From: a virus
Lineage: Duplodnaviria; Caudoviricetes
Virus record (IMG/VR): IMGVR_UViG_3300034065_000151
Location: 32,001 to 96,000 of that record
DNA: 64,000 nucleotides
Direction: 5' to 3' (one strand)
A model generated the notes under the pieces. It did no database searches. It had not been told where the DNA came from and worked only from the letters and a program-made list of their open reading frames with translations. The translations under genes were made by a program, and so were the position numbers. The stretch's first letter is position 1; each line of letters starts with the position of its first letter. Of the stretch, positions 9,941-31,898 are shown one piece after another.

Positions 9941-10285
9941 TTAATCGGGATTACGGATCATTGATTGTCGAGTGGTATAATCTTTATTACGACCTCGATT
10001 ATCTACAAAGCCAAAGGACTTATAAAATTTTTTGAGGCGGGTAAGAGAAGATGCACCAAATTCAATGGTTGGAGAAAGGGCAACTCTTTGTTTTGTGTTG
10101 TCTGCGTAAGCACAGACAGATTTCATAAATTTGGTACCAAGACCAGTTCTTTGTTTATCTTTATCAACTTTTATTATAGAAATAGTAATAGTACCTTTAT
10201 CTTCCCAGACAAATGCATCAATGCCAGGAGCAATAAAATTTTTACTAATATCACCTTCAGTAATAAATTGTTTAAAGGTTTTCAT
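9941..10285 (-). CDS. GNAT-family acetyltransferase with capsid-targeting leader
   Basis: MKTFKQFITE leader; IKVDKDKQRTGLGTKFM (acetyl-CoA motif A); FYKSFGF. Confidence 0.8.
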   Translation of the reverse strand: MKTFKQFITEGDISKNFIAPGIDAFVWEDKGTITISIIKVDKDKQRTGLGTKFMKSVCAYADNTKQRVALSPTIEFGASSLTRLKKFYKSFGFVDNRGRNKDYTTRQSMIRNPD

Positions 10286-10827
10286 TCCAGTAAACCTTTT
10301 ACCTTAAGAATACTTGGATCCCAACAGATAAAGTGTACTGTATGACCATCTGACCCGGGAATTATAGTAAATCCTTGATAACCAAAAACTTGAAGTTTTT
10401 CTAAGTACTTTGCGGCTTCATGTCTATAAAAATCATACCATACCTGTTCTAATGCATTACGATAGATTGGATTATATTTACAAATAGAATCAGTAGCAAC
10501 ATCAATAGCTCTTGATTTATTCTGATCCCAATTATAAAGATCATCTGGATCAGGACATTTTGAAATAAGAATATGAATACCACGTCTAATAGTTTTTACT
10601 TTGTCTGTTAATATTTTAGATTTAACCATATTAACCTCCACTTCATGGATATACTTACCATAAATTTTTGCATCTTCTGGGTTATTAGTAAGATAAACAC
10701 CCGGACCACGAGTATCATGACCTTGACCTTTACCAAGATGATCTAATGAAAAACTTTCAATCTTAGTATTACTTCCATGGTACCAAATTTCTTTGGCTTC
10801 AATTAAATATTCTTTAAAAGTAATCAT
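10282..10827 (-). CDS. Putative ADP-ribosyltransferase-fold protein (H-Y type) with capsid-targeting leader
   Basis: MITFKEYLIE; WYHGS...GPGVYLTNNPEDAKIYG. Confidence 0.65.
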   Translation of the reverse strand: MITFKEYLIEAKEIWYHGSNTKIESFSLDHLGKGQGHDTRGPGVYLTNNPEDAKIYGKYIHEVEVNMVKSKILTDKVKTIRRGIHILISKCPDPDDLYNWDQNKSRAIDVATDSICKYNPIYRNALEQVWYDFYRHEAAKYLEKLQVFGYQGFTIIPGSDGHTVHFICWDPSILKVKGLLE

Positions 10828-11555
10828 GGCTTCCATGCCTTTGCATATTCAAAAAAGTTTGATCCATCATGTTTCATATGGATAACATCTGCTCTGTCAA
10901 ATCTATAACACTTACTTGGATGTAATTTACCAGCATGCCCTAAGTGGGCACCACAATCAACAATTTTTAAAAGAAATTCATCATCCATTTTTGAAATTAA
11001 TTTTTTACCACCCTTAGCCCAGTACTCAATATCACCATCTTTTATTTTTTCTAAGTCTCTAACAGAAAGCCAAGCTTTAGCCATGTTAACTAATTCTTTT
11101 CCAATTGGTTTTAGTTTTTCATTTCTAATAGCATATTTTTCGTCTGCTTGATGCCATTTACTATTTTGATTAAGTAAATAATATAAAAACTCACCAATAC
11201 TATCTTCATCTGGAACAATATCATTAAAAGCAGTTCCAGTAAATTCAAATACAAAACCATACTGACCATAGACTTTAATATCTCTAGTACAATCTGATCC
11301 GGCCATATCACCACCAATACCATAAATCATTGCATATGGTAAATCAGTAGTTATATAAACCCTATCTTGTTGTGGTTTAAAATTTGACTTGGTTCTTTTA
11401 CCAGAATATTTAATTTCAGTATGAACTGGATCAAGTCCCTGTTCCCAAATACCTCGAGCAGCTTTTTCATTATTAGTTCCATGATAATAAACTTTAGCTT
11501 TATCAGATTCTCTAGGAGTAGCCATTTCAGCCACATATTGTTTAAATGTAATCAT
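10824..11555 (-). CDS. Putative ADP-ribosyltransferase-fold protein (H-Y type) with capsid-targeting leader
   Basis: MITFKQYVAE; YYHGT..AARGIWEQGL...RVYITTDLPYAMIYG...PDED. Confidence 0.65.
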   Translation of the reverse strand: MITFKQYVAEMATPRESDKAKVYYHGTNNEKAARGIWEQGLDPVHTEIKYSGKRTKSNFKPQQDRVYITTDLPYAMIYGIGGDMAGSDCTRDIKVYGQYGFVFEFTGTAFNDIVPDEDSIGEFLYYLLNQNSKWHQADEKYAIRNEKLKPIGKELVNMAKAWLSVRDLEKIKDGDIEYWAKGGKKLISKMDDEFLLKIVDCGAHLGHAGKLHPSKCYRFDRADVIHMKHDGSNFFEYAKAWKP

Positions 11556-12133
11556 AGGTGGAATAATATCTTTTCAATTTCATTAACAGTTTGATGATGT
11601 TTAAGTATATCAAAATGGCCAGTAGCAATAGGGATTACTAATTCTGCACATCCTGCTTCTTGCGAATTTATGCTTATAATGCCATCATTTGAACCATTAA
11701 TGAATGGATTGAACCCTTTGGTGCTAATAAGTGAAGCAAATTTACCGGTTATACGCGGTTGTACAGTCATCTTCTTAATTGTCCCACTTTGTGGGGTTAT
11801 ATCATCTAACACACCATAATTAGGTAGGAAATACTTAGTCGAGAACAAACTATCACTTCCACCAAATGGTGCTGATATAGTTACTAAATCTTTAACTTTA
11901 ATATTAGGTTGTAATGTTATAAGGTGGCCTAAGATACCACCGAGACTATGACCAACAATTGATATCTCAGTATCTGTAGGAATCTGTGATAATACTTCTT
12001 CAAGAATATTATCAATATTTTTAGATCCACTATAACTAATAAAAGTAGATTTATGAACAGAAAGCATCTCATCAATTAAGTTGAAAACTTCGGGACCACT
12101 TGCCATTCCATGTATCCAAACTATATGGTTCAT
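11552..12133 (-). CDS. Alpha/beta hydrolase (lipase/esterase)
   Basis: WIHG, GHSLGG nucleophile elbow, SAPFGGS, NDGII, GH. Confidence 0.85.
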   Translation of the reverse strand: MNHIVWIHGMASGPEVFNLIDEMLSVHKSTFISYSGSKNIDNILEEVLSQIPTDTEISIVGHSLGGILGHLITLQPNIKVKDLVTISAPFGGSDSLFSTKYFLPNYGVLDDITPQSGTIKKMTVQPRITGKFASLISTKGFNPFINGSNDGIISINSQEAGCAELVIPIATGHFDILKHHQTVNEIEKILFHL

Positions 12134-12948
12134 TCGTCTATTTCTTCCTGGTCTATCTCTTTATAGTCTCGTATAGCATCACGTATAAAGTGCCATTGAT
12201 CTGCTTCAATCATTAATACAGGACCACCTACCCAAACCTCTTGTTCACCTAAATTATGATGAATATCTTTAGTTGTACAAACATCAAATTCTAAAGATTG
12301 TGGACTGTATGCCTTATAGATATCTGTTATAAATTGATTTGCAAATTCGTGAAGGGTACCCATATCATGAATTTCAAAAGCTTTTCTGAATACCTCAATT
12401 GCTTTTTCATCACCAGCTTCTAATTTACCAGCAAACTTTAAAAAACTTCTCCAACTTGATGGTTTAATTTCGGGAATATCTTCCCAATAGTCATTCATTC
12501 TGTTTATAGTGACAAATATACCAAATAAGGTTACTCTTGTTCTCCATAAATCATGACCACTACATACACCAATTTTTACACCATTATATGGAATAACAAC
12601 ATAAGGATCACCAAAACCTTGAGTATAATTAAGACGAGTTGAACAGACAAATGAGCGAGAACGTTTTGGGTATGCATTCATTAAAGGATTGTTATCCAAA
12701 ATGGTTGTATAGTAATTTGTTGTGTTTTCTGATTGACGACGAGTTAATGCTGGATTAACAGTATAGGCTTTATAGCCACCCAAACGTTGTGATTCACCAC
12801 GATACAATGGTTTATCTTTGATAGCCATCCATGTAGCATCAGAACATTTTGTTTTATAGATTTTAACAGCTTCATCAATGTCATATTTTTTATACATTGG
12901 GGTTTTTGTAATAGCTGCTTCGTCAAGGTATTCTTTAAATGTGATCAT
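12130..12948 (-). CDS. Putative R-S-E ADP-ribosyltransferase, subfamily A, capsid-targeting leader
   Basis: MITFKEYLDE; LYRG...PKRSRSFVCST...EQEVWV. Confidence 0.6.
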   Translation of the reverse strand: MITFKEYLDEAAITKTPMYKKYDIDEAVKIYKTKCSDATWMAIKDKPLYRGESQRLGGYKAYTVNPALTRRQSENTTNYYTTILDNNPLMNAYPKRSRSFVCSTRLNYTQGFGDPYVVIPYNGVKIGVCSGHDLWRTRVTLFGIFVTINRMNDYWEDIPEIKPSSWRSFLKFAGKLEAGDEKAIEVFRKAFEIHDMGTLHEFANQFITDIYKAYSPQSLEFDVCTTKDIHHNLGEQEVWVGGPVLMIEADQWHFIRDAIRDYKEIDQEEIDE

Positions 12949-13745
12949 GAAAGTTCTTCTTTAATATCTGCCCACATATTTAGCGAGATTAATAATACCG
13001 GACCACTTACCCACACTTCATTATTTCTGGCATCATGTGGAAAATCTTCAGTTGTGCAACATTCGAATCCTGTTTCTTCTGGACTATAAGCTGCCATGAC
13101 TGTTTCTAAGAAATCATTTCTGTGTTTATCTGCTTGTCCAAAACTGATAGCATGACCTAATCTGTTATAAGCAGCTTCACCACCAGCTTTAAGTAATTTA
13201 TCAAACTCAATCCATTTAGACCAGTCAGTTGAAGATAAATTTAAATCAGTGAATATAGTACGATTCATATTGGGTAAATTACGTTCTCTATTAAACAGAT
13301 TAATTTTAATATCCCAAATATCTTCTTCAGGTACTATCCCGATCTTAACTCCATTGTATGGAATCATTATCATAACATCATCAGTATTATGAGTGTACTG
13401 TTCAGCACGACCGAATGAGGTAGAAGCAATAAAACTTCTTGAACGTTTTGGATAGTCTTTCATACTAGGAATATTATCAAATATTAAAGTATAAAAGTTT
13501 GATGTATTTTGGCTAGCACGTTCTGTTTTAGATGGATCAACAGCTAAGCAACCAGTTTTATTTAATTTTTTAATTGTTGTTTCATTTCTTTCACCACGGT
13601 ACAACGGACGATCTTCACTGATCATCCACATTGCATCTCTGCAGTGACTCTTAATGGTTTTGATTGCGTCAGATAAATCAACGGGGCTATATTTCGGATC
13701 CCGTGTTTTGGCGCGCTCATTTAAAAAATCTTTAAAGGTTAGCAT
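12945..13745 (-). CDS. Putative R-S-E ADP-ribosyltransferase, subfamily A, capsid-targeting leader
   Basis: MLTFKDFLNE; LYRG...PKRSRSFIASTS...NNEVWV. Confidence 0.6.
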   Translation of the reverse strand: MLTFKDFLNERAKTRDPKYSPVDLSDAIKTIKSHCRDAMWMISEDRPLYRGERNETTIKKLNKTGCLAVDPSKTERASQNTSNFYTLIFDNIPSMKDYPKRSRSFIASTSFGRAEQYTHNTDDVMIMIPYNGVKIGIVPEEDIWDIKINLFNRERNLPNMNRTIFTDLNLSSTDWSKWIEFDKLLKAGGEAAYNRLGHAISFGQADKHRNDFLETVMAAYSPEETGFECCTTEDFPHDARNNEVWVSGPVLLISLNMWADIKEELS

Positions 13746-13746
13746 T

Positions 13747-14070
13747 TTATTGACGTGTCAATTCTTTCCAGTTTACTAAAGGCATAGTAAGACGGATACT
13801 ACCCTTGCTGTCAATAATACTAACTTGTTCATTGTCACCAAGTTGAACTTTATAGTCACCAGCTTTAGCGATTACTTTTGGTTCTTCTTTTGATGGTTCT
13901 GAATTTGGTGGAGGTGTTTCTTGTTCAGTGCCTTCAGGACCTTGTTGTGAAGTAGCAGAACCCTGTGGCATGCCACCTTGAGTCTGTTTATCTAAACTAC
14001 CATTACCACCTGGCATATCATCTTCAGCAAGCTGGGTTGTGATTGCAGTAAGTTCTTTTAAAAAATTCAT
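13747..14070 (-). CDS. Putative internal head protein
   Basis: MNFLKEL...QLAE leader; low-complexity middle. Confidence 0.55.
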   Translation of the reverse strand: MNFLKELTAITTQLAEDDMPGGNGSLDKQTQGGMPQGSATSQQGPEGTEQETPPPNSEPSKEEPKVIAKAGDYKVQLGDNEQVSIIDSKGSIRLTMPLVNWKELTRQ

Positions 14071-14081
14071 TGTATTTCCTT

Positions 14082-14387
14082 TTATTTTGGGGTCTCGAAA
14101 TCGAGCGGGTTTTCATCCTTAGGGATAAAATATAACTGCTTGGCATCAGCACCATTTGGTGGATCAACTCTTGCAAACTTCTTATTCAAAAACGTGAATA
14201 GACTTATAATCCATGCACCACCAACAGTATCAATGACCTTATGCTTTTCTTCATGAGCTTTCATTAAGATATCATCTTTAACATCAAGAATTGAAACCAC
14301 ATCAGGAACACCTAATAATTTTTTAGCCATGGCAGATGCCTGAGCTTGTACTGCAATTTCAACTAGATACTGTTTGAATGTAATCAT
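14082..14387 (-). CDS. Putative internal head protein
   Basis: MITFKQYLVE leader. Confidence 0.6.
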   Translation of the reverse strand: MITFKQYLVEIAVQAQASAMAKKLLGVPDVVSILDVKDDILMKAHEEKHKVIDTVGGAWIISLFTFLNKKFARVDPPNGADAKQLYFIPKDENPLDFETPK

Positions 14388-15190
14388 TTTCTTTCTCTAA
14401 CAACGCGTAAATTGGTAGCTTTAAGTTCAACTGTATCTGGATGATCTTCACCATCACGATCGAATTCAACAACAAAAGTCCTACCACCATCAATTGACTT
14501 ACCAACTTTAACAATAGTTGCTTCCCAACCCACTGCATCTTTTGGACCACTTTTAATCTTAACTCTTACACCCTTTTGGAATGGGGAAATATCATCAATA
14601 AATCCAGCAGATGCTTTTTTCTTTGCTACTGGCTTACCTTTGTTTTGTGATGACCAATGGCCTTTGTGAGCTTCATGTAATACTTTACCAGTACCTTCAT
14701 CAGCACCACCTTCTTCAGATGGGTCCCAAACACCAAAGCGACGATCGATACCAGGAACTTCTGCACTGACAGTCATCTTACCACCTTCCATACGGCCATT
14801 GAAACGCATCTTGGCAGCTTGGGTTGGATGGGATGTCTTAACAGCTTTCTTCCAATCATCAATATTCGTATATGTTACTTCTTCAGCAACTTTTAAAAGT
14901 TTTGCTTTAAAACCTTCAGCATATGAAGATACATCTTCTTTAACTTTTTTAGACTTGACTTTTTCACCAAGATCATCAATCTCTTGCTGCATCTTATTCA
15001 ATGTCTTTTCCAAATCTTTATAGGCTTTCTTCTCAGCAGTCAAATTCTTTAACTGACGCTGGAGCATGATAAACTTACGACGTTTATCAATAAGTGACTG
15101 GCGCATTAAGGCAATAGTATCCTCATTGGCTTTTGTAATAGCTGTTAGTTTGATAGCTTCATTAACTGGTTTGATATCACTGATTTTCAT
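14384..15190 (-). CDS. Putative internal head protein with C-terminal KOW/SH3-like domain
   Basis: Several (V/L)xE sites; coiled coil; FQKGVRVKIKSGP..VGWEATIVKV. Confidence 0.55.
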   Translation of the reverse strand: MKISDIKPVNEAIKLTAITKANEDTIALMRQSLIDKRRKFIMLQRQLKNLTAEKKAYKDLEKTLNKMQQEIDDLGEKVKSKKVKEDVSSYAEGFKAKLLKVAEEVTYTNIDDWKKAVKTSHPTQAAKMRFNGRMEGGKMTVSAEVPGIDRRFGVWDPSEEGGADEGTGKVLHEAHKGHWSSQNKGKPVAKKKASAGFIDDISPFQKGVRVKIKSGPKDAVGWEATIVKVGKSIDGGRTFVVEFDRDGEDHPDTVELKATNLRVVRERK

Positions 15191-15222
15191 AGTATCCTCA
15201 AGATTGGTTAATTATTTATTGA

Positions 15223-15921
15223 TTATGACAACAATTTAACCACATCTCGTGTGAAACCATCATTCCAATTGAGTGTGTAATATTCAGTACAATGGATCAT
15301 AATTTCCGGACCATCACCATCACCCATTGCTTTTTTCAAATCATGGTCGATATATGGGTTAACCTTTTCTAAATACTTTTTAATAATCTCGGCATACTCC
15401 TCGGAATCCACTGGTGGTAAGGAAGTACTTAATTGTAAAGCATGGGTGATATCACCATAGCCTTCACGATTTTCATCACTTCTGTTTTCTTTGCTTTTCT
15501 TATTATCAAAGAAACGGTAAGCATCAAGGATTTTTGGAGACCATACATATTTGTATTCTCCTATTGGGAATACTATAAAAGCATCTCCATATTCTTCGGC
15601 GACATGACGACGGCCAGTTGTAAATACGGCATTACTTCTAAATTTGATACCAAACTTACTTTTGAAATAATTATCCAATACTTCATGGATTTCTTCAGAT
15701 GAATCTGTTGGACCACGATTGGTTCTTACTTTTTGTGTTGAGAATGCAGGAAGTTGCATATGACCGGAAACCCCACGCCATAAAGTATGATCATCCATAT
15801 TATTATAAGAGAATCCACTTTCCTTTAGGAAAGGTTGACAGTTAGCCTTAATCAAATCAGCAACTTGTTGAGGAGTCTGCTTTTCTTCTTTTTCATTTAG
15901 GAATTGTTTAAATGTTATCAT
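15223..15921 (-). CDS. Putative ADP-ribosyltransferase, subfamily B, capsid-targeting leader
   Basis: MITFKQFLNE; LWRG...RSNAVFTTG..VAEEYG.AFIVFPIG...PEIMIHC. Confidence 0.6.
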   Translation of the reverse strand: MITFKQFLNEKEEKQTPQQVADLIKANCQPFLKESGFSYNNMDDHTLWRGVSGHMQLPAFSTQKVRTNRGPTDSSEEIHEVLDNYFKSKFGIKFRSNAVFTTGRRHVAEEYGDAFIVFPIGEYKYVWSPKILDAYRFFDNKKSKENRSDENREGYGDITHALQLSTSLPPVDSEEYAEIIKKYLEKVNPYIDHDLKKAMGDGDGPEIMIHCTEYYTLNWNDGFTRDVVKLLS

Positions 15922-16577
15922 AATAGTTCCAATACTCTTTCAGTAAATTTATCTGGTAGACGGCTATCATATCTCAATGCATAATAGCTATCACAGTGTA
16001 TCATTATTTCATGACGAGATACAATAGCTTTAGCTAATTCATTGCTTTTATATGGATTAACTTTTCTAAGGTACTCACCAATGTCATCAACATAATCATC
16101 ACTTTCTCTAGCAATATCTTTACCTAATACATCACACATATCAGGAATACCATCAGCTTTAGGTTGAGCAAAATATGAATAAGCATCTTCAATTTTAGGT
16201 GACCAAATAAATTTGAAATTACCAATAGGAAATACTAAAAATGCATGACCATAGTTCTCAGCAATTTTTTCACTGCCGGTGACAAAAAAGGCTTCTGATC
16301 TATATTCAACCCCAAACTTTTCATCAAAGTACTTATTGAGTTCATTATGAATATAGCGATTAGTATCAACCGGATCACGTTGCATCCAACGTGTTTGTTT
16401 TGAAAATATAGGAAGGTCTACATAATCACCAACTCCACGGAATAATGATGTATCATTAAGTTCTCGTGGATCAAAACCACTCTGTGCCAAAAATGAATGA
16501 CAGTGCTCAATTATTAATTCAGCAGCTACTTCTGGTGTTTGAGTTTCTTCATTTAAGAATTGGCGGAAGGTAATCAT
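15918..16577 (-). CDS. Putative ADP-ribosyltransferase, subfamily B, capsid-targeting leader
   Basis: MITFRQFLNE; LFRG...RSEAFFVTG..IAENYG...HEIMIHC. Confidence 0.6.
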   Translation of the reverse strand: MITFRQFLNEETQTPEVAAELIIEHCHSFLAQSGFDPRELNDTSLFRGVGDYVDLPIFSKQTRWMQRDPVDTNRYIHNELNKYFDEKFGVEYRSEAFFVTGSEKIAENYGHAFLVFPIGNFKFIWSPKIEDAYSYFAQPKADGIPDMCDVLGKDIARESDDYVDDIGEYLRKVNPYKSNELAKAIVSRHEIMIHCDSYYALRYDSRLPDKFTERVLELL

Positions 16578-17266
16578 AATAAGTCTAATACCTCTTTGGT
16601 AAAATCTATTTTTGCACGGTTACTCTTACCATAATATAAAGTATAGTAGTTTTCACAATGAATCATAATTTCAGAATCATGATCAATTGCTTTAGATAAA
16701 TTGGTATCTTTATAAGGATGTGTTTTTTCTAAATACTGTTTAATAGCTTTACAATAATTTCTGTTATTTGAATCTTCATCATGATCAATATATTCAATCT
16801 TATGACCAAATATTTCATGATAGTCATTCATAAATTCACGATTTTCAGCATCAAAGAATAGATAAGCATCCCTAATCTGTTCTGACCAAATATATTGATA
16901 ATTACCAATTGGGAATATTATATAAGCACACCCATAATCCCTGGCTAATGAACAGGAACTAGTAGCAAAGAATGCATTACTACGATAGTTAATTCCAAAT
17001 TGTTCCATAAAATATTCATTTAATGTTTCATGTTGAAGTTTACTTGTATCTTTTGGTTGACGATTCATTTCAACACGGTTTTTGTGGAATGCTGGAAGTT
17101 CTGCTTTGATCCCACGATATAATTCATGTTGTGGACCAAAACCTTTAAATCTACTTTCTTCAAGAAACTTGGCGCAGTCTTTTTTAATTTTTTCGGCTGC
17201 TTGCTCTGGTGTAAAGTCACCTAGTTCATTATCACCTTCATTTAGAAACTGTTTAAATGTAATCAT
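16574..17266 (-). CDS. Putative ADP-ribosyltransferase, subfamily B, capsid-targeting leader
   Basis: MITFKQFLNE; LYRG...RSNAFFATSS..LARDYG...SEIMIHC. Confidence 0.6.
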   Translation of the reverse strand: MITFKQFLNEGDNELGDFTPEQAAEKIKKDCAKFLEESRFKGFGPQHELYRGIKAELPAFHKNRVEMNRQPKDTSKLQHETLNEYFMEQFGINYRSNAFFATSSCSLARDYGCAYIIFPIGNYQYIWSEQIRDAYLFFDAENREFMNDYHEIFGHKIEYIDHDEDSNNRNYCKAIKQYLEKTHPYKDTNLSKAIDHDSEIMIHCENYYTLYYGKSNRAKIDFTKEVLDLL

Positions 17267-17907
17267 ACAGTCTCCATAAATGGTTTTACTAGTTCATTAT
17301 AAACAGAACCATTAAGATCAAAAATATAATATTCACCACACTTAAACATAATTTCATTTCCTGCACGCAGGCATTCTTTAATATCAGTATTATGATACCA
17401 TCTAAAGTGTTTTAATTTAGCTAACATTCTGTCCCAAGCAGATTCCATTCTTTTATCACCACTTGGATCATTTTTATTATCTATTGGGGTAGCATCTTTA
17501 GTATCCCAAAAAAAGCTTGTCATATCTTTAGATTCTTTATTAATACCACTTATCCATTCAAATTTTCCAATGGGAAATATTGCATATACTTTACCATATA
17601 CAGTTGCTACAGCATTATGTCCACTGGCAAATATCCAATTACGGATTGGCTCACCAAATTTTTCAGTAAAGAATTCATTTAGTTTTTTATGGATATAATC
17701 AGGAGTGCTCATTGGTGACCAACGGGCTTCCCATTTATTGATAGCCCAATTCTTAGTACCTTTGAAAGAAGCACCACGGTACATTACTAAATTACCTTGG
17801 GAACCCTTAAGTTCACCAAGGTAAAAAGCACAATCCTTTTTAAATTTATCTAAGTCAAAGTCATCAAAGGCTTTATCTTCAGATAAGAACTGTTTGAAAG
17901 AAATCAT
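17263..17907 (-). CDS. Putative ADP-ribosyltransferase, subfamily B, capsid-targeting leader
   Basis: MISFKQFLSE; MYRG...RNWIFASG..VATVYG...NEIMFKC. Confidence 0.58.
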   Translation of the reverse strand: MISFKQFLSEDKAFDDFDLDKFKKDCAFYLGELKGSQGNLVMYRGASFKGTKNWAINKWEARWSPMSTPDYIHKKLNEFFTEKFGEPIRNWIFASGHNAVATVYGKVYAIFPIGKFEWISGINKESKDMTSFFWDTKDATPIDNKNDPSGDKRMESAWDRMLAKLKHFRWYHNTDIKECLRAGNEIMFKCGEYYIFDLNGSVYNELVKPFMETV

Positions 17908-18611
17908 TCTTCGCCAAAGGAACCTATATGTTGATTCTTAAGACGAGTAATACCATTTCTTAAGTTGATTAGGAATTGTTCGATATCACCAATAGTTTGG
18001 GTCATATCTTTCCACTGAGTTTCAAATTCAGGAGTCCATGTCTTAGCTGACATCATCAAGTTACGACGATAACTAGTTACTTTATTTTTATTGTTTGGAT
18101 CTACTCTATTAAGTTCACTAACTAAATTATTATTTTCTTCTTCAAGTTTGTCAACCAAAGCAACAAGTTTTTCATCATTGACTTTAACTTTTTTTAACCA
18201 ATAGGTTAAAAGACCATGTGCATCTTGATGTTTAGCAACATCGATAACAGTATTCAAACCTTCAATCATTTTGTCTAAACGGAATTCTTTACGATCGACA
18301 CGTGGTAAGTACTTAGCCAAGATTGGTTTGATAAAGGATTCAAGATAGTCTTCAAGAGCTTTTTCATTTTCCTTACGATCACCCCATTTACCACTTAAGC
18401 CTTTAATAGCCAAAGCTTTAGGGAAATCACCATCATTGTAATAACGATAATAAGCACGGAAGATAGTATCTTTCTTTGCTTTTTCACCAGCCGTTAAAAT
18501 ACCCTTATCATACATCCATGACATAAGAGCATCAACCTTTTTAAGGCGACCTTCCCAAGCACGACCGGCAGAGGAGGCTTCATTTATTTGGTGCAATTCT
18601 TTAAGTAACAT
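17904..18611 (-). CDS. Putative internal head protein
   Basis: MLLKELHQINE leader; YYRYYNDGD motif. Confidence 0.55.
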   Translation of the reverse strand: MLLKELHQINEASSAGRAWEGRLKKVDALMSWMYDKGILTAGEKAKKDTIFRAYYRYYNDGDFPKALAIKGLSGKWGDRKENEKALEDYLESFIKPILAKYLPRVDRKEFRLDKMIEGLNTVIDVAKHQDAHGLLTYWLKKVKVNDEKLVALVDKLEEENNNLVSELNRVDPNNKNKVTSYRRNLMMSAKTWTPEFETQWKDMTQTIGDIEQFLINLRNGITRLKNQHIGSFGEE

Positions 18612-19058: not shown

Positions 19059-19570
19059 GTGTCTTCTTCTTCTTTATCTTTTAAAAATTCTTTATATCTA
19101 GCTTTGTATATTGAACTACTATAAATTGCTTTTTCACCAGGTTCCCATGAACCACCAACCACATCTCGGGCATACAAATATGAACACTGGGCAGACTTTG
19201 CAATAGCTGCTTCACCAGCTGGAAACTCACCATCCAATACATCAATAGCATATTCTAATGCATGTGATGCACTTTTGGCAATAGCCGGTTCACCTTCTTT
19301 AAATCTTCCATGAACTACTTGCATTGCATATAAAGTAGAATATTCCGGATTGGTTGCAATTGCTTCTTCTCCTGCCGGGAATTCCTGACCAATTTCTTTA
19401 CGAGCATATTCATAAGCTAACTTTGGACTCTTAGCTATGACATGTTCATATTTTTTTAATTCTCTCGGATTGTTTTTATACTTATCCCATACTACTTGTG
19501 GAACTGTGGTTTGAGCTTTCTTGTAACCATGAATAGATTCAGGATCATTGTGGTGAGCATATAAGTTCAT
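19055..19570 (-). CDS. Helical-repeat family protein with about four 23-aa repeats
   Basis: Repeats of YA..V..G.FP.GE.AIAKS. Confidence 0.7.
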   Translation of the reverse strand: MNLYAHHNDPESIHGYKKAQTTVPQVVWDKYKNNPRELKKYEHVIAKSPKLAYEYARKEIGQEFPAGEEAIATNPEYSTLYAMQVVHGRFKEGEPAIAKSASHALEYAIDVLDGEFPAGEAAIAKSAQCSYLYARDVVGGSWEPGEKAIYSSSIYKARYKEFLKDKEEEDT

Positions 19571-19965
19571 ATTTCAGATTCTATTTCTTTTGATAAGGAA
19601 ATTAATTTGTTTAACTTAGCACCAGTACAATTTTGTGCACTAACTTCAACTGGTAACCATTTTTTCTTAGTCTGTTTTGCTGCAGCTGTTCTATGATGAC
19701 CATCAGTTAATGTAACTTTAGCAGTATTATTTTTATTAGCTTTATCATAATGATACGCAGTTACTTCAACTGGTTTATCATACTTCATATTCTTGGCAAC
19801 CTCATCTGATACTGACATTACTTCAGGTCTAAAATCCATTTCCGTCCGTTCAATAGCAGATACTGGAAGATACTTAATCTCAGAAATTATCCCACGATAA
19901 CCCTTATCATCTTCATAAGGGCCATGTAAAATAGCTTCACTAATAAACTGCTTGAATGTTATCAT
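19567..19965 (-). CDS. ParB/sulfiredoxin-like domain protein with capsid-targeting leader
   Basis: MITFKQFISE; KPVEV...LTDGHHRTAAA...WLPVEV. Confidence 0.7.
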   Translation of the reverse strand: MITFKQFISEAILHGPYEDDKGYRGIISEIKYLPVSAIERTEMDFRPEVMSVSDEVAKNMKYDKPVEVTAYHYDKANKNNTAKVTLTDGHHRTAAAKQTKKKWLPVEVSAQNCTGAKLNKLISLSKEIESEI

Positions 19966-20684
19966 GATCTATACCAGGATGATATCTTTTTATCTAAAGC
20001 TTCTTTAGTGAATACATCAGGAACCAAATACTTGGCCTTCTTTTCCTGTAATTCTTCTAATGTTCTTTTACCAACTGGATTACTAATTGGTTCATTATAG
20101 AATCCCTGTACTGCTTTGAAAGCTTTCTGCATAACCGCATCATCTAAACCATCAGTCGTGTTATCAATCTGTTTAAAGAAGTTTACTTTAGCCTTAAGGT
20201 ATTCCGCATTTTCTAAGTTCTTTTTATCAACAGTATGGATGAAGTCTTCATCAACATCTCGACCGGTTCTTGACTTGGCACGGGCAATGGCCGTATCAAT
20301 ATCTGTGTGTACAAATATTACACCGATATCATAACCAATAGATTCAAGGATACCAATACGATTTAAAATGTTGGACACATCATTAGAGGTTCCATCAATA
20401 AATAATGGAAGCATACTATCTAAGTAGTTTAGAAGTGTATTGTTGGTAATACGATGAGCTGAGTCTTTAAACTCATTCCAGTTTTTAGAGGTTGAGGTCT
20501 TCTTATATTTCTTGGCAAGATACTCGGTTGCTCTATCAGTATTGACAACTTTTGGTGATATTGAACCACTAAGCTGTTTAACAGTATAACTCTTACCAGC
20601 TCCTGGTAAACCAATAATAAAGATTGCCTTCATAATCCCCTTATCATTAACAGACTCGGCGATGAATTGTTTAAACGAAATCAT
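19962..20684 (-). CDS. P-loop kinase (zeta-toxin/AAA_33-like) with capsid-targeting leader
   Basis: MISFKQFIAE; IIGLPGAGKS, FIDGT, GYDIGVIFVHTDIDTAIARAKSR. Confidence 0.75.
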   Translation of the reverse strand: MISFKQFIAESVNDKGIMKAIFIIGLPGAGKSYTVKQLSGSISPKVVNTDRATEYLAKKYKKTSTSKNWNEFKDSAHRITNNTLLNYLDSMLPLFIDGTSNDVSNILNRIGILESIGYDIGVIFVHTDIDTAIARAKSRTGRDVDEDFIHTVDKKNLENAEYLKAKVNFFKQIDNTTDGLDDAVMQKAFKAVQGFYNEPISNPVGKRTLEELQEKKAKYLVPDVFTKEALDKKISSWYRS

Positions 20685-23370: not shown

Positions 23371-23378
23371 TATTTATA
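23371..23378 (-). promoter_or_regulatory. Late promoter TATAAATA
   Basis: Exact motif about 28 nt upstream of the 23343 start. Confidence 0.7.
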
Positions 23379-24527: not shown

Positions 24528-24555
24528 TAAATTTACACAAAATTTTGAGTTTTTT

Positions 24556-24584
24556 AAAAGGCCAAGATCAAACTTGGCCCTTTT
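24556..24584 (-). terminator. Rho-independent terminator after sheath gene
   Basis: GGCCAAG...CTTGGCC stem flanked by A and T tracts. Confidence 0.7.
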
Positions 24585-24585
24585 C

Positions 24586-26448: not shown

Positions 26449-26574
26449 TTTAATAACTCCCTATGAATATGGTTATAATGCTAGAAAGAGCTGTAAATAG
26501 TTCAATTTCTATCATTCTTACTTATATTTAGAAAAAAAGACTAAAATTCTTCAAAAAACTTGAGGACTTTCAGC

Positions 26575-27321: not shown

Positions 27322-29228
27322 ACTTTCCCTCCTAATGGGACTCGTGTTGCTGATTGCATAATACTTCTGATTGAAGGTTTTGCAGATGTGTATAAACCAC
27401 GTTTGTCTTGTTCTAAGAATAACCAAGCATTTTTAACTGTTGAGAAACGATATAAACGTGGTGCAATAACAGTTTCAGGTGGATAATATAAACGGAAATA
27501 AGCACCATCAGCAACACCTGCGATTGGTGGTAAAGTATAACCTTCAGTATATGGTTCTCCATTTTTTGGCAAACCATCTTCAATATACAAGTTAGGTGTG
27601 CTTCCAACTGGAGCAGATAGTGGTTGACCAGATGGATTTCTAGGAGGTGGAGCAATATACTCTACAATACCTGCAATTTCCTGTCTATCATCGGAACCAA
27701 CTTCTGGAACAGCATCAGCTGCATTCTTGATTATCTCTTCTGTATTGGTTAATGGTAATGTATCAATTTGCTGACCTACACCATTTGTAAACAATGCATC
27801 AGCAATTAAATATTTCTGAGTATCCATCGTACCAAAAATATCTCTGGTTTCCTGTGATGGTAATGCTTGCTGACCTGAAAAACGATAAGTGGTTGGGTTA
27901 TACAATGGACCAAATCCAGAACTCTGCCAAGCAGCATCAGTTACTTCCAAGAACTTACGGATAGGTAATAAGTTCTGATCATATTGCATCTCTGGTATAA
28001 CTTCAATAATATCTCCAACAACTATAGGACGACCTAAAGCTTTTACCATAGTTGCAAAGGAAACAACAAATGTATATTGTTCGAGAATATTAAGACCGAA
28101 GCGGGCAAGGTCACTAACAGAGTCTGCTGGTGAATATTGGGCTTTAAGTGGGATTGGAACCAATCCATATTCACGATCACGATTTTCATTAAAGAATAAA
28201 TCTTGAATATTATTAATTGTGGTTGGCATTTCATCAAGTACATCAAATGCAACTACTTCCCAGCTACCAGTTCCAGTGAACATGGTAGGGGTTACCATAA
28301 TAGCTTTAACTTTTAATAAAGTATTAAGATTAAGAGTTTGTGGTAATGGTGATTGAACCATATTATATAAACCAACACGTTTCCAATTATAATTAAGTGG
28401 AACCATAAACATATCACCAACAGCAAAGGGAGTCGATCCAGAAGCTATTGTTAAATTAAGGAAGGTACTATAAAATGGAATATCAGATGTCAAGGTTCCC
28501 AAATTAATAGTTGTACTATCAGGCAAGGTAGCATACACATTAAAGGTCATTGAAGAAATTGCAACTATATTAATAACACTTTGAGTTGCATCAGAACCAA
28601 TACCATTAGTAGTAAGTACACCATTACCGGTTCCAGAAAAGAAAGTAATGCCGGGAGATACATCTCCAGAAGTAATTTCAACTTTAACCTGTTGTGCAAA
28701 TTGACCAGGGTTATTTGATTGTGTTAAATTGATAGCACCAACACTTACCCATTTTTGAGCTTCTGGTTCATATTCAGTACGACCATTAGCAAGTAATTTA
28801 ATACCAAAGTCAACACCGACATAAGCAGTATTAGTAACTGCAGAACCTTGTTGGGAAGACCACCATGATTGTCCTGGTTGATTTAAACCAGTTAATGGAT
28901 AACCTGGATATGAGGTAGAACCAATTATGCGGCCTTGTGATAATACAGAACCATTTCCTTGTTGGTGAATACCAAGTAAAGGATAGATATTAAGGGGAGC
29001 ACCTGAAATATTAATAGTTTCAGCAACATAAGTCTGCTGATTGAGTGCTTCATTTTGTGCACATATATCTGGGTTAATACCTGTAATCTGCCAGTCACCA
29101 ATCGGTAAGGCAGGTGGAACATATGGTTTTAATGCAGTATTATTCAAACCAGTTTGAGCTGGAGGTGCATTGGGATTGTTTAAACTACCCCCACCATTTT
29201 CACAAGGTAATGTTGGTTGTTGTATCAT
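27318..29228 (-). CDS. gp14: Neck protein gp14-like with large insertions
   Basis: ETINISG, IQDLFFNENRDREY, DLARFGL, RPIVVGDIIE; position between gp13 and gp15. Confidence 0.7.
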   Translation of the reverse strand: MIQQPTLPCENGGGSLNNPNAPPAQTGLNNTALKPYVPPALPIGDWQITGINPDICAQNEALNQQTYVAETINISGAPLNIYPLLGIHQQGNGSVLSQGRIIGSTSYPGYPLTGLNQPGQSWWSSQQGSAVTNTAYVGVDFGIKLLANGRTEYEPEAQKWVSVGAINLTQSNNPGQFAQQVKVEITSGDVSPGITFFSGTGNGVLTTNGIGSDATQSVINIVAISSMTFNVYATLPDSTTINLGTLTSDIPFYSTFLNLTIASGSTPFAVGDMFMVPLNYNWKRVGLYNMVQSPLPQTLNLNTLLKVKAIMVTPTMFTGTGSWEVVAFDVLDEMPTTINNIQDLFFNENRDREYGLVPIPLKAQYSPADSVSDLARFGLNILEQYTFVVSFATMVKALGRPIVVGDIIEVIPEMQYDQNLLPIRKFLEVTDAAWQSSGFGPLYNPTTYRFSGQQALPSQETRDIFGTMDTQKYLIADALFTNGVGQQIDTLPLTNTEEIIKNAADAVPEVGSDDRQEIAGIVEYIAPPPRNPSGQPLSAPVGSTPNLYIEDGLPKNGEPYTEGYTLPPIAGVADGAYFRLYYPPETVIAPRLYRFSTVKNAWLFLEQDKRGLYTSAKPSIRSIMQSATRVPLGGKV

Positions 29229-30115
29229 TCGTCACTTTCTTCATAATCTTTCGGATCATGTTTTACATACCATTGCTTTGGGATATATTCTTTTACAAAT
29301 TCTTCTAGGGCATCATTTTGTGCCATACGACGAAGAAGTCCTTCAAATCTCAAAAAGGCACATTTACCTTGTACCCAGATTTCATTATCGTGACCACCAA
29401 ATGAAGCAGAACCTGAAACAACATGACTAAAACCGTTCTTGGTAGGATCCATTCCATTTTCAAAAAGATCATATAGTGTTCTAAACCCATGAGTTTTAAA
29501 TGCTTGAAGGTATTTTTTCCATTCTTCACGTTTACCGGTTTCAGTATTTAAATCATCTATTAATTCAAAGGTAACTCTTTTTAAACAGCTACATAAAGCT
29601 GCATAGTTTTTATGAGCCATATTATATTCAGACAAATGCTCACGCTTATTTGCGGCCATAATAAGGTCTTGAACATCAGACATAAAACCATCCATACTTC
29701 TACCGGTCATGCGATCGATATAATCAAAGCCATACCATAAATCATCACCAGCAATGATACCAATTTCTGAACCATCTGCTGGAATAATTAAATGGACATT
29801 ACCAAAACCACCTGCCATATCATTGTTAGTACTACAAATATAAGACTTAGAACGTTTCGGATAATCTTTCCATGCAGGATTGTTATCCATCCAAATTGTG
29901 TAATAGTTTACAGTATTGGCGGATTCCCGATTTAAACTGTTAGTATCAAAAACCCCCATTTTTATGCTCATTGGCATACCACGAAATATAGGACTCTTTT
30001 TAATCTGTGGTAGATATTTTGAGGCATTAGTTTCACACCACTTCACAAACAGATCGGGTTCCATCTCGGTGTGGGCAAACTGGTCTTCATTTAAAAATTG
30101 TTTGAATGTTATCAT
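29225..30115 (-). CDS. Putative R-S-E ADP-ribosyltransferase, subfamily A, capsid-targeting leader
   Basis: MITFKQFLNE; IFRG...PKRSKSYICST..AGGFG...DNEIWV. Confidence 0.6.
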   Translation of the reverse strand: MITFKQFLNEDQFAHTEMEPDLFVKWCETNASKYLPQIKKSPIFRGMPMSIKMGVFDTNSLNRESANTVNYYTIWMDNNPAWKDYPKRSKSYICSTNNDMAGGFGNVHLIIPADGSEIGIIAGDDLWYGFDYIDRMTGRSMDGFMSDVQDLIMAANKREHLSEYNMAHKNYAALCSCLKRVTFELIDDLNTETGKREEWKKYLQAFKTHGFRTLYDLFENGMDPTKNGFSHVVSGSASFGGHDNEIWVQGKCAFLRFEGLLRRMAQNDALEEFVKEYIPKQWYVKHDPKDYEESDE

Positions 30116-30957
30116 TATCTATCCAACATGTATTTAGTCATAAAATCTTCGAGTACTTCATTGTCACTTTCTTCAAGGCCATCTTCACTATATTTAAGGA
30201 TGCCACAAGTACCTTGAATCCATACTTCTTTGCTAGGACCTGGATTTTTATAGGTTGCTCCAGTTTCAACATCAAAGCCATTTTGTAATGGGTTGAAACC
30301 TAACTGCATTAAATCAAATAAGTTGTCACAGCCACTACGTTCAAAAGCAAGTAAGAAGTGTTCAAAATCTTTTTTTCTTGTTAGGTTTTTGGTAAGGTTT
30401 TTTAATGTTACTTTTTTCAAACACTTAACCAATGCTTTATAATCCATTTGAGCATTTTTAAATTCTTCTGTTTCTTCACTATCTAATTTCATTACCAGAT
30501 GAATCCAGCTATTAAAATTATCAAGGGTGGAATAGTTACCCATACCCATTTTCTTAAACAAGTATTTAAAGGACATCCACAAATCATATTCTGGACAGAT
30601 ACCAATCTTGGCATTATCAGCAGGGATAATTAAAAACGTATTATCATTACCATAGCTACTAGCAGTAGTTAAATTGGTAGAACAGATAAAAGACTTAGAA
30701 CGCTTCGGATACTCTTTCCAAGCTGGATTGTTATCAATCCAAATTGTGTAATAATTTAAAGAGTTAGCAGACTTACGGTTTAAACCATTAGTATCTGAAA
30801 TTCCCACTTTGGTTTCACCAGGCATACCACGATAGATATGTTTGTCCTTAGCACCATTTAAATAGGCACTAGCATTAGTTTCACACCACTTAACAAACTC
30901 TTCTGGTGAAACATCTCTAGTAATATCTCCATTAATAAACTGTTTAAATGATATCAT
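30115..30957 (-). CDS. Putative R-S-E ADP-ribosyltransferase, subfamily A
   Basis: MISFKQFING (E>G); IYRG...PKRSKSFICST..ASSYG...SKEVWI. Confidence 0.6.
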   Translation of the reverse strand: MISFKQFINGDITRDVSPEEFVKWCETNASAYLNGAKDKHIYRGMPGETKVGISDTNGLNRKSANSLNYYTIWIDNNPAWKEYPKRSKSFICSTNLTTASSYGNDNTFLIIPADNAKIGICPEYDLWMSFKYLFKKMGMGNYSTLDNFNSWIHLVMKLDSEETEEFKNAQMDYKALVKCLKKVTLKNLTKNLTRKKDFEHFLLAFERSGCDNLFDLMQLGFNPLQNGFDVETGATYKNPGPSKEVWIQGTCGILKYSEDGLEESDNEVLEDFMTKYMLDR

Positions 30958-31898
30958 TTAAAACTCACATGATCAAAGTGTTTCTTTAGGAATTCATTAA
31001 TAACATCATGTTGTTTAATTATCTTGCCACCCATTGGATTTTCTTCTTCATCTTCTTCAGTCTCATCATTTTCATCTTCACTCTCAATTTTAAGAATGGC
31101 ACAATTTCCCTGAATCCAAACCTCTTGATTTGTTGGGGGTGGACGATATCCATGACCAGTATAAACTTTAAACTTGTTTACTTTTGGATCAAAGCCTTTC
31201 TGGAATACTTCATACATACTTGTGTAGCCATATTTTTCAAAGACTTTAACAGCATCCATAAATCCGCCTTTTGTTTTTTGATTGGCTTCTTTAAGTGACT
31301 CTAAAGTAACTCGCTTTAAACAACTACATAAGGCGGCATAATCATTTTCTATGTTCTTATAATCTGGATCATTCTCACCTAATACTGCTTCAAACATTTT
31401 TTGAAAATCATTCATATATTCTTCTAATGTTCCACGATATTTTGGATCAGCATCAAATATTTTATCCAACTGTTTAAAGCCATACCATAAATCTATCTCA
31501 GGACATACACCCATTTTGGCATCATCTGCCGGGATAATTAAAAAAGTACTTCCATAACCCATCTCGGAAGCACTATTAAAAGAAGTAGCACAACATAAGG
31601 ATTTGGAACGCTTTGGATAATTTTTCCATTCAGGATTATTATCCATCCAAATAGTATAGTAGTTATAAGTGTTCAATGATTTACGGTTCAATTTGTTAGT
31701 ATCACAAAGACCAATCTTAATATCTTCTGGCATACCACGAAAAAGCATTTTATCTTTGGAACCCTTAAGATAATGAGTAGCATTGGTCTCGCACCATTTT
31801 ACAAAGGCTTCAGGGCTTATAGATTGTGTAACCCCTTTAGCTGGGCCATATCTACTTGCTGATATGTCTTCATTTAAGAACTGTTTAAATGTTATCAT
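30954..31898 (-). CDS. Putative R-S-E ADP-ribosyltransferase, subfamily A, capsid-targeting leader
   Basis: MITFKQFLNE; LFRG...PKRSKSLCCATS...NQEVWI. Confidence 0.6.
   Translation of the reverse strand: MITFKQFLNEDISASRYGPAKGVTQSISPEAFVKWCETNATHYLKGSKDKMLFRGMPEDIKIGLCDTNKLNRKSLNTYNYYTIWMDNNPEWKNYPKRSKSLCCATSFNSASEMGYGSTFLIIPADDAKMGVCPEIDLWYGFKQLDKIFDADPKYRGTLEEYMNDFQKMFEAVLGENDPDYKNIENDYAALCSCLKRVTLESLKEANQKTKGGFMDAVKVFEKYGYTSMYEVFQKGFDPKVNKFKVYTGHGYRPPPTNQEVWIQGNCAILKIESEDENDETEEDEEENPMGGKIIKQHDVINEFLKKHFDHVSFK

Follow-up and report, generated by a model that had tools for sequence, protein, structure and literature searches.

A T4-like capsid-targeting tag on at least 15 genes of a jumbo phage probably marks a large set of virion-packaged proteins

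Background

The closest described system is that of the internal proteins (IPs) of phage T4. The T4 record gives MKTYQEFIAE as the leader of ipII and ipIII, as had been stated in the preliminary description of the DNA analysed here, and a leader beginning with MKTFKEF in ipI and gp61.1. Mutagenesis of the capsid-targeting sequence (CTS) of T4 IPIII showed residues 4 and 7 to act in targeting, and residues 8 and 10 in processing (PMC9026906). The tag described here is likewise N-terminal and ten residues long, with an aromatic residue at positions 4 and 7 and [LI]-x-E at positions 8-10. Its first seven residues are nearly identical to those of IPI, and in the ORF starting at 10285 eight of the ten residues are identical to the gp61.1 leader. 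As in T4, the tag is borne by otherwise unrelated proteins, and a gp21-family protease, a gp20 portal and a gp23 capsid protein are encoded. Unlike T4, which has 3 carriers (about 10 kinds are found over all T-even phages), this phage has at least 15 carriers in 40% of its genome, and these are arranged as long tandem arrays within operons of late structural genes. The T4 IPs are small, basic nuclease inhibitors, whereas the cargo here is of 10-35 kDa, mostly acidic to neutral (pI 4.9-9.8) and enzyme-like. There is also a predicted likeness to T4 Alt, the head-packaged ADP-ribosyltransferase (ART) that is processed by gp21, in the ART-type cargo and in the short N-terminal propeptide ending in E. 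However, Alt has 682 aa and one packaged copy, whereas the family A and B proteins described below have 210-310 aa and nine paralogues, and a profile comparison of family A with Alt gave no sequence similarity. A second leader type, which resembles the Alt leader, is present in this window and in relatives.

Two other systems are comparable. The polyvalent proteins (Iyer et al. 2017, PMC5512222; PMC9503650) have the same repertoire of ART-PolyVal, GNAT, ParB_N and P-loop kinase domains, but there the domains form one giant polypeptide fused to MuF, portal or other structural parts, whereas here each domain is its own gene with its own tag and loading would use a CTS and the scaffold core. PHROG profiles place the cargo domains inside proteins of 788 to 3925 residues, and among relatives there is a 2645-aa protein in which family A occurs five times. 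The inner-body and ejection paralogues of phiKZ, 201phi2-1 and SPN3US (PMC5694885) are similar in that they belong to jumbo phages with a gp21-related protease and comprise many paralogous proteins with a short cleavage motif ending in Glu, the head-internal site being predicted here. They differ in having long variable propeptides, an S/A/G-x-E motif, no common 10-residue tag and unrelated families. The phage analysed here belongs to the T4-head Rak2/XacN1/RsoM2USA group and is not phiKZ-like. We did not find this tag described for jumbo phages in the literature.

Results and discussion

A ten-residue tag begins 15 genes

The window is a stretch of 64,000 nucleotides, positions 32,001 to 96,000 of the record IMGVR_UViG_3300034065_000151, from an uncultured phage. 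It had been proposed that M-[IKL]-[TS]-F-[KR]-[QED]-[FY]-[LIV]-x-E begins 15 ORFs in this window, with E replaced by G in one of them, and that a regex scan of the whole genome and its relatives would be informative. When all six frames of the 140,766-bp record were scanned, the motif was found at all 15 starts, with the coordinates right; the G at position 10 of ORF 30957 is the sole departure. The core, F-[KR]-x-[FYW]-[LIVM]-x-[EG], has 15 matches in the record, every one of them residues 4-10 of a minus-strand ORF, with zero elsewhere, and because all 15 are residues 4-10 of tagged ORFs chance is excluded. Since the scanned 140.8 kb is about 40% of the genome, 15 tagged genes is a lower bound. 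The tag is also kept in relatives.

All 15 tagged ORFs start with ATG and encode 101-314 aa. Position 4 is F and position 7 is F or Y in every one, position 8 is L, I or V in every one, and position 10 is E in 14. Conservation ends sharply at residue 10, and the 25 nt on the 5' side of the starts have no common sequence. A codon tally of the 15 tags bore out the claim of synonymous-site variation: Phe4 is TTT or TTC (10:5), Gln6 is CAA or CAG (6:6), Leu8 is TTA, CTA or CTT, and Lys5 AAA is swapped for Arg CGC with the charge kept. Selection on the tag acts at the level of the peptide. Most of the tagged starts overlap the preceding stop codon (ATGA), and because of these overlaps the start at 10827 is favoured over the upstream ATG at 10836. 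The tagged genes are the following.

9941..10285, minus strand: 114 aa, GNAT acetyltransferase, tag at residues 1-10
10282..10827, minus strand: 181 aa, ART-PolyVal-like, tagged
10824..11555, minus strand: 243 aa, tagged, DarT/PARP-like lead only
12130..12948 and 12945..13745, minus strand: family A paralogues, tagged, phrog_12810
14082..14387, minus strand: 101 aa, tagged, no family assigned
15223..15921, 15918..16577, 16574..17266 and 17263..17907, minus strand: family B paralogues, tagged, phrog_11975
19567..19965, minus strand: 132 aa, tagged, ParB_N-like lead only
19962..20684, minus strand: 240 aa, P-loop kinase, tagged
29225..30115, 30115..30957 and 30954..31898, minus strand: family A paralogues, tagged, between neck and tail genes

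The cargo proteins

The 15 proteins fall into about seven families. Five are family A paralogues (starts at 12948, 13745, 30115, 30957 and 31898) and four are family B paralogues (15921, 16577, 17266 and 17907); the two families join into one large unnamed superfamily, which thus holds nine of the 15. The other six are singletons: two further ART-like proteins, a GNAT, a zeta-toxin/AAA_33 kinase, a ParB_N-like protein and one without an assigned family. The earlier statement that the tag is fused to unrelated domains therefore holds in part. GNAT, ART-PolyVal, P-loop kinase and ParB_N-like proteins do carry it, but with nine of 15 in one superfamily and about 11 of 15 looking ART-like the cargo is less diverse than was supposed.

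Among the singletons, the GNAT protein matches Pfam Acetyltransf_10 at 1.3e-7 (32.1 bits, above the cut-off of 23.6). The match covers only the C-terminal half of the fold, and the predicted mature protein has 104 aa. It also matches positions 2709-2796 of the giant phrog_10691 and is homologous to the N-terminal part of gp63, a virion protein of Agrobacterium phage Atu_ph07. The product of 10282-10827 matches phrog_25279 at 8e-22 and Pfam ART-PolyVal (PF18760) at E 2.9e-6 with 28.5 bits, just under the cut-off of 31.2, and is likely a diverged ART-PolyVal relative rather than a certified member. For 10824-11555 there is neither a Pfam nor a PHROG match, and its structural neighbours in the Atlas are DarT/PARP, DUF4433 and DUF3990 proteins at a TM of about 0.5. 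No Pfam or PHROG family matches 14082-14387, which has one tagged relative, in genome G001. The product of 19567-19965 has no Pfam match and has Atlas structural neighbours carrying ParB_N (TM 0.49-0.55). The kinase matches AAA_33 at 1.9e-9 (38.4 bits, cut-off 27) and Zeta_toxin at 1.5e-8 (34.7 bits, cut-off 22.3) and has a Walker A motif, G-x-x-G-x-G-K-S, at residues 25-32; it has 316 homologues, and the tag core is kept in 112 of the best 120.

Structure models were considered for families A and B. In both, the tag is of low confidence and the remainder folds well: the model of 30954-31898 (family A) has a pLDDT of 84 and that of family B a pLDDT of 76, and both have ART-fold neighbours. The neighbour lists of these two independent models are dominated by ARTs (Arr, diphtheria toxin, tankyrase/PARPs, KptA, DarT, cholix and TreX), at weak scores (Z of 6.5 or lower for family A and 5.3 or lower for family B). 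Foldseek and a PDB profile search gave no match. In sequence, family A conserves an invariant Arg in x-R-G, a [CA]-[ST]-[ST] stretch and the Glu of E-[VI]-W; family B has the same R-S-E-type pattern except for one member without the R-G Arg. From the weak structural scores and this motif pattern, the predicted fold of families A and B looks like that of ADP-ribosyltransferases, and a corresponding activity would follow by inference. The superfamily has 7,657 cluster representatives at E 1e-3 or better. It is conceivable, at somewhat short of even odds, that A and B form a huge unnamed ART-like branch, almost all of it with a cleavable head-loading leader, which would be the main injected class of T4-head jumbo phages; its cargo would come either from separately tagged genes or from polyproteins with [LV]-x-E joints at which they are cut, and the injectome could be read by a leader scan.

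The head module and expression

The genes of the T4-type head module, among them the presumed tag-removing protease, and a late promoter box lie in the same window.

36431..37669, minus strand: gp23-type major capsid protein, Pfam Gp23 8.9e-95
37686..38558, minus strand: presumed scaffold/core protein, placed as T4 gene 22 just upstream of the capsid gene, phrog_10922
41511..42125, minus strand: gp21-type prohead protease, presumed to remove the tag, Pfam Peptidase_S77 4.4e-25
42271..43908, minus strand: gp20-type portal protein, Pfam Portal_T4 2.7e-83
23371..23378, minus strand: T4-type late promoter box TATAAATA, upstream of a tube-like gene

The protease aligns with T4 gp21 (5JBL) at 3e-13, has the His, Ser and Asp motifs, and has L-I-E at residues 6-8 of its own N-terminus. 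Its gene adjoins the gp20 and gp23 homologues. With this neighbourhood and the fit of the tag to the mapped positions of the T4 CTS, the earlier reading of the tag as T4-like and capsid-targeting is supported. The presumed scaffold and the protease show the strongest enrichment of [LI]-x-E sites, and the scaffold candidate has the highest density of them in the window (13 sites, 6.6 expected).

The tagged genes are located within late structural operons. There are nine late boxes on the minus strand. Eight of them lie between genes, at a distance of 35-75 nt on the upstream side of a gene start, and several of the genes concerned are structural. The array from 22048 to 9941 runs co-directionally after the box at 23371..23378 and is without a late box of its own; it has no excess of terminators or sigma-70 sites.

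Relatives and virion proteomics

Across four related genomes the tag is retained on about 20 sequence clusters; a complete genome of 343 kb has about 18 tagged genes, and RsoM2USA, the nearest cultured relative, has about 10. The peptide is kept with different codons over genomes of 36-54% GC, including a 50%-GC relative. In RsoM2USA, ORF403-405 are syntenic with the trio at 29225..31898, and ORF89, which begins with the tag, encodes a 28.56-kDa protein found by LC-MS/MS among the ten most abundant virion bands (PMC6102473, PMC8504454). In Atu_ph07, gp54-gp65 were all found in virions with 3-15 unique peptides (PMC6102473, PMC8504454), and we placed them on the genome array by exact molecular mass. 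Of these, gp54-gp63 are homologues of three cargo families, A, B and GNAT (the family A trio corresponding to gp54-56, 58 and 59, and family B to gp57 and gp60-63), and carry their own, different tag of eight residues ending in L-x-E. Both papers list the proteins as hypothetical and are silent on the tag, the logic of the array and the ART-like fold (PMC6102473, PMC8504454). These proteomes are of whole virions, head and tail together, with N-termini not reported, and by our analysis of them they support packaging.

The proposed role of the tag

We propose that the tag is a T4-type capsid-targeting sequence that loads the cargo, followed by a gp21-type cut and probable ejection, and we put the probability of this whole reading at about 0.8. 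Late in infection, the tagged proteins would be produced together with the structural proteins, and the aromatic residues 4 and 7 would bind the cargo to the scaffolding core during prohead assembly. The protease encoded at 41511-42125 would then cleave after [LIV]-x-E, at residue 10, and the mature proteins would remain in the head alongside the DNA and would probably be ejected with the genome into the next host, to act before phage transcription. The 30957 copy, with its G at position 10, would be targeted and left uncut. Since at least 15 genes, most of them enzyme-like, have a tag that is nearly that of T4, it is probable that the virion carries a large set of proteins, predictable from sequence, which would be delivered along with the phage DNA. 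Location in the head rather than the tail, cleavage, ejection and enzyme activity are what we infer for this phage. That the cargo departs in charge and size from the small basic IPs counts against this reading. The system amounts to a variant of the T4 internal-protein system on a larger scale, loaded with enzyme-like proteins.

An unlikely alternative, and the one that survives best, is that the tag-loaded proteins are not effectors but serve inside the particle, as core or scaffold, as filler that condenses DNA or tunes pressure, or as proteins degraded and expelled at maturation. The T4 core proteins gp67, gp68 and gp22 are indeed cut by gp21 and largely expelled (PMC9026906), and the heads of phiKZ and SPN3US contain many paralogous internal proteins with unassigned roles. 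However, the cargo here appears, from sequence and models, to resemble host-acting enzymes (ART-like folds, GNAT, kinase, ParB_N-like) and shares domains with polyvalent proteins predicted to be injected (PMC5512222, PMC9503650), the tagged IPs and Alt of T4 are ejected (PMC9026906), and the Atu_ph07 homologues are still present in mature virions.

It is very improbable that the shared N-terminus is mere common ancestry, copied along the array as genes duplicated or converted one another, with no role in sorting. That nine of 15 are in one superfamily and that the genes are mostly in tandem would suit this explanation, but six carriers have other folds, conservation stops exactly at residue 10, and the tag fits the T4 CTS at its functional positions. 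In addition, the same peptide is retained in genomes of 36-54% GC, and recent gene conversion is excluded because the synonymous codons differ among the tags. Slighter still is the chance that the tag is a leader for some other machine, either a RiPP-type modifying enzyme or sorting to neck, whiskers or tail. Three tagged genes do sit between neck and tail-sheath genes, and the proteomics of the relatives covers whole virions without localising the proteins. Against a RiPP-type leader, a radical-SAM domain is absent from the 140 kb (40% of the genome); against neck or tail sorting, enzyme-like globular folds are improbable as parts of fibres; and against both, the tag has the gp21 cleavage motif at its end and is almost identical to the leaders of T4 head proteins. 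That the conserved start is an mRNA element (an A/T-rich unstructured initiation region) or a recombination cassette is the least probable of all, because although the tag codons are A/T-rich and the ATGA overlaps couple the genes translationally, the amino acids are fixed while third positions vary freely, AAA to CGC keeps the charge, and in the 50%-GC relative the peptide is encoded by other codons.

Conclusions

Little has been described of what giant phages bring into the cell besides DNA, and dozens of the proteins in their virion proteomes are annotated as 'hypothetical'. With the T4-type capsid-targeting reading, a 10-residue tag shared with T4 would make the packaged set readable from sequence. 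This set would comprise 15 or more proteins here and about 18 in the complete relative, and the tag also points to the protease that would release the cargo. The predicted cargo of ART-like enzymes, an acetyltransferase, a kinase and a ParB-like NTPase fold suggests a chemistry directed at early takeover of the host or at its defences, and far larger in scale than that of T4 with Alt and three IPs. The cultured phages RsoM2USA and Atu_ph07 make this idea testable at once, and the tag could, like the T4 CTS, be used to bring foreign proteins into the heads of jumbo phages. If the broader proposal for families A and B is true, leader scanning would give a sequence-only readout of the 'injectome' across thousands of uncultured phages.

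The tag and the phage that carries it

The preliminary description named fifteen start positions, and all fifteen are ATG-started minus-strand ORFs of 101 to 314 aa with the N-terminus M-[IKL]-[TS]-F-[KR]-[QED]-[FY]-[LIV]-x-E (the tag; G at position 10 in the ORF at 30957). A regex scan of the whole 140,766-bp record in six frames for the core F-[KR]-x-[FYW]-[LIVM]-x-[EG] gave 15 matches, all of them covering residues 4-10 of a tagged ORF, with no match elsewhere; therefore, the tag is not a chance motif. Conservation ends sharply after residue 10, and the DNA upstream of the tagged starts has nothing in common. Because the tag is encoded with varying synonymous codons (TTT/TTC 10:5, CAA/CAG 6:6, three codons for Leu, AAA replaced by CGC), selection acts on the peptide, as had been claimed, and a tag that works as an mRNA-level element is a weaker explanation. 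Most tagged starts form an ATGA overlap with the preceding stop, which points to translationally coupled gene chains.

CheckV gives a completeness of 40% for the 140,766-bp record, of which the window is positions 32,001-96,000; this implies a jumbo-phage genome of some 350 kb. In a megablast comparison of the array and the tail region with 50,697 phage records, no match was obtained. The virus is known from metagenomes only. By capsid protein the closest cultured phage is Ralstonia phage RsoM2USA (63% identity), followed by Stenotrophomonas CM1/RAS14, XacN1 and then Rak2-like phages; many uncultured relatives in IMG/VR are closer than RsoM2USA.

Cargo of the tagged genes

BLASTP with the tag removed placed nine of the tagged proteins in two paralogue groups, family A (n=5; ORFs starting at 12948, 13745, 30115, 30957 and 31898) and family B (n=4; 15921, 16577, 17266 and 17907). 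Profile comparison joined the two: they have an N-terminal domain in common, some 130 residues long, with a probability of 99.35%. The six remaining proteins are singletons.

Singleton tagged genes
9941-10285, minus strand: GNAT protein (Pfam, 1.3e-7)
10282-10827, minus strand: ART-PolyVal-like protein (2.9e-6, slightly below the Pfam cut-off)
10824-11555, minus strand: DarT/PARP-like protein, a lead from structural neighbours only
14082-14387, minus strand: 101-aa tagged protein without an assigned family
19567-19965, minus strand: ParB_N-like protein (structural neighbours only, TM about 0.5)
19962-20684, minus strand: P-loop kinase of the AAA_33/zeta-toxin type (Pfam)

The claim that the tag is fused to unrelated domains holds only in part: at least four clearly different folds have the same tag, but nine of the 15 proteins belong to one superfamily and about 11 of the 15 appear ART-like. 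That the tag is a mere remnant shared by paralogues would suit these nine, and it is a weaker reading across the four folds. Merging ORFs 10827 and 11555 into one family was rejected because their BLASTP link consists of the tag plus the following Y-H-G motif only.

The ART-like (ADP-ribosyltransferase-like) assignment of families A and B comes from structure and from a pattern of conserved residues. AlphaFold models of one member each had a pLDDT of 84 (A) and 76 (B), with the tag at low confidence in both. Foldseek with these models gave no match, and profile searches of both families against PDB sequences gave chance-level matches only. In an exhaustive structural search ARTs dominated both lists independently, at low Z (up to 6.5 for A and 5.3 for B), and included Arr, diphtheria toxin, tankyrase and other PARPs, KptA, DarT, cholix toxin and TreX. 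Family A conserves an invariant Arg in x-R-G, the sequence [CA]-[ST]-[ST] and the Glu of E-[VI]-W; family B has the same pattern, with one member lacking the Arg. These conserved residues resemble an R-S-E triad. The ART assignment is likely, though not established.

An untagged alpha/beta-hydrolase or lipase-like gene (11552-12133, minus strand; PGAP1 1.3e-6, Lipase_3) lies within the tagged array, and the head-gene region of XacN1 has a lipase gene too. Three small paralogues (18699-19058, 19055-19570 and 44622-44876, minus strand) have a common N-terminal H-x-x-P-E-S-[IV]-H-G-Y-like motif; two are within the array and one adjoins a tape-measure-like gene. A second type of short leader at the N-terminus has the approximate form M-x-L-L-[KR]-E-L-x-x-[LI]-x-E or M-K-V-x-x-L-x-E and is like that of T4 Alt, the head-packaged ART of T4.

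ORFs with the second leader
13747-14070, minus strand
14384-15190, minus strand
17904-18611, minus strand
35795-36244, minus strand
39382-40164, minus strand
40167-41012, minus strand
43975-44562, minus strand

Relatives have two to six such leaders per genome, and the family A protein ORF405 of RsoM2USA has this type in place of the F-K-x-F tag. Judged by these leaders, the head-targeted proteins probably number above 15.

Head genes and expression

A T4-type head module lies upstream of the tagged genes on the same strand.

Head module
Minus strand: portal (Portal_T4, 2.7e-83)
Minus strand: prohead protease (Peptidase_S77, 4.4e-25)
Minus strand: several small core proteins
Minus strand: presumed scaffold
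Minus strand: major capsid protein (Gp23, 8.9e-95)

In an alignment with gp21, the T4 prohead protease (PDB 5JBL; 3e-13), the phage protease keeps the His, Ser and Asp motifs. Enrichment of the motif [LI]-x-E is highest in two proteins, the presumed scaffold (13 sites vs 6.6 expected) and the protease (8 vs 2.3), as gp21-like specificity predicts. A weak second Peptidase_S77 match (53988-54323, minus strand; 23 bits, under the cut-off) is a diverged protease paralogue; a cryptic protease paralogue is also present in SPN3US-type phages (PMC5694885).

The T4-type late promoter box TATAAATA occurs nine times on the minus strand, and eight of the nine are intergenic, at a distance of 35-75 nt before a gene start; several of these genes are structural. 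No late box belongs to the tagged arrays themselves, which come after structural genes with no terminators between; scans of the array for sigma-70 promoters and terminators were at or below shuffle expectation. Late co-expression of the arrays with the structural genes is therefore plausible.

Comparison with T4

The capsid-targeting sequence (CTS) of T4 is MKTYQEFIAE (PMC8442874). Suppressor mutagenesis in T4 linked residues 4 and 7 to targeting and residues 8 and 10 to processing, and Asp at position 10 blocked cleavage but not targeting (PMC9026906). Positions 4, 7, 8 and 10 are exactly those that are invariant in class across the 15 tags. If T4 is a guide here, the variant with G10 at 30957 would still be loaded but would escape cleavage. 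In the T4 record the internal proteins (IPs) ipII and ipIII begin with MKTYQEFIAE, and ipI begins MKTFKEF followed by a longer propeptide. A T4 match at 19,130 taken for ipI was rejected; it is gene 61.1 (NC_000866.4, 18,966-19,130, minus strand, 54 aa), which starts MKTFKEFIKE, and the ipI leader was read from the T4 record. The leader of gene 61.1 and that of the ORF at 10285 are the same at 8 of 10 residues. Gene 61.1 encodes a hypothetical protein, adjoins the primase gene and has a perfect CTS-type decapeptide ending I-K-E.

The T4 IPs are smaller, whereas the cargo here is larger, mostly acidic to neutral and enzyme-like. In spirit it is closer to Alt, yet profile comparison of family A with Alt found no similarity.

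Tag and cargo in relatives

Virion proteomes have been published for RsoM2USA and Agrobacterium phage Atu_ph07 (PMC8504454 / PMC6102473), and both papers give the proteins concerned as hypothetical only. ORF89 of RsoM2USA (66,030-66,791) begins with the tag, and its computed mass of 28.56 kDa identifies it with the 28.57-kDa 'ORF89' that LC-MS/MS found in a virion band ranking among the ten most abundant. Tagged ORFs of this phage include ORF61, 81, 89, 254, 255, 385, 403 and 404, and its protease is the product of ORF379. Twelve tandem genes of Atu_ph07 correspond to gp54-gp65 of the published proteome, with masses matching to 0.01 kDa, and all twelve were detected in virions with 3-15 unique peptides. 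Family A homologues are gp54, 55, 56, 58 and 59, and family B homologues gp57, 60, 61 and 62; gp63 is a GNAT-family B fusion matching ORF 9941-10285. The tag on gp54-gp62 is a different one of 8 residues, M-[RK]-W-x-Q-L-x-E, with a close variant on gp63, and the gp21 homologue of Atu_ph07 is gp204. Among the tagged genes ORF254-258 of RsoM2USA, the MS-confirmed virion protein ORF257 (MG752970.1, 166,235-166,771) has a different N-terminus that ends I-T-E at residue 15, possibly another propeptide.

The scan of relatives that had been proposed found about 18 tagged ORFs in a complete 343-kb genome (mostly M-R-F-K-x-[YF]-[LI]-x-E, one long array included), some 10 in a fragment of 239 kb, some 5 in another complete genome (358 kb) and about 10 in RsoM2USA; the controls had 1-3. 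These are protein-level counts; a strict DNA pattern gave 1-3 per relative genome, an undercount due to shifted or variant leaders and GTG/TTG starts. In XacN1, GAP32 and a Vibrio jumbo phage the F-K-x-F core was at background counts only, and the single XacN1 core match was rejected because it is antisense to an annotated gene.

Clustering by sequence divides the 47 tagged ORFs of four genomes into about 20 groups. For the kinase there are 316 homologues, and the tag core is kept in 112 of the 120 best. Family A is very large: its cluster representatives number 7,657 at an E-value of 1e-3 or lower and 1,415 when the limit is 1e-30; among the best 150, 86 have the strict core and most others variant short leaders ending in Glu. 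One cargo family with different leaders and one leader on different cargo are what a modular tag predicts. In two related proteins, P0260 and P0264, an F-K-Q-F tag is internal at residue 64, behind a 60-residue N-terminal extension.

PHROG profiles place the cargo domains within proteins of 788 to 3,925 residues, and one related protein, P0126 (2,645 aa), holds five family A copies, four of them preceded by [LV]-x-E (L-N-E, V-N-E, L-K-E, L-E-E), as if this polyprotein were to be cut apart by the prohead protease. Such giant and multi-copy proteins link the cargo to the 'polyvalent proteins' that are predicted to be injected (PMC5512222, PMC9503650). Tandem family A copies in single long proteins occur in P0126, P0151 and P0162.

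Proposed role of the tagged proteins

The best-supported explanation of the tag is that it would bind the cargo to the scaffolding core, that a gp21-type protease would then cut after residue 10, and that the cargo would be retained in the filled head and ejected with the DNA. The analysis demonstrates the tag, its position, selection on the peptide, the T4-type machinery and homologues in virions, and location in the head rather than the tail, the cut, ejection and catalytic activity of the cargo are inferred. That the cargo is internal structural filler and is never ejected is a weaker reading of these enzyme-like proteins. Weaker too is a tag that is recognised by some other enzyme or that sorts proteins to the tail; for the former, a radical-SAM domain was not found in the 140 kb of the record (about 40% of the genome).

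T4 and the IP loci of T-even phages already provide this kind of system, about 10 IP types having been recognised there through their leader, and our literature search found no paper linking a CTS to this jumbo-phage group. What is new is the scale of the tagged set within one genome and the enzyme-like cargo, whose repertoire overlaps that of polyvalent proteins but here comes as separate genes, each with a tag. New as well is the link between virion packaging and a huge unnamed superfamily that is likely to be ART-like.
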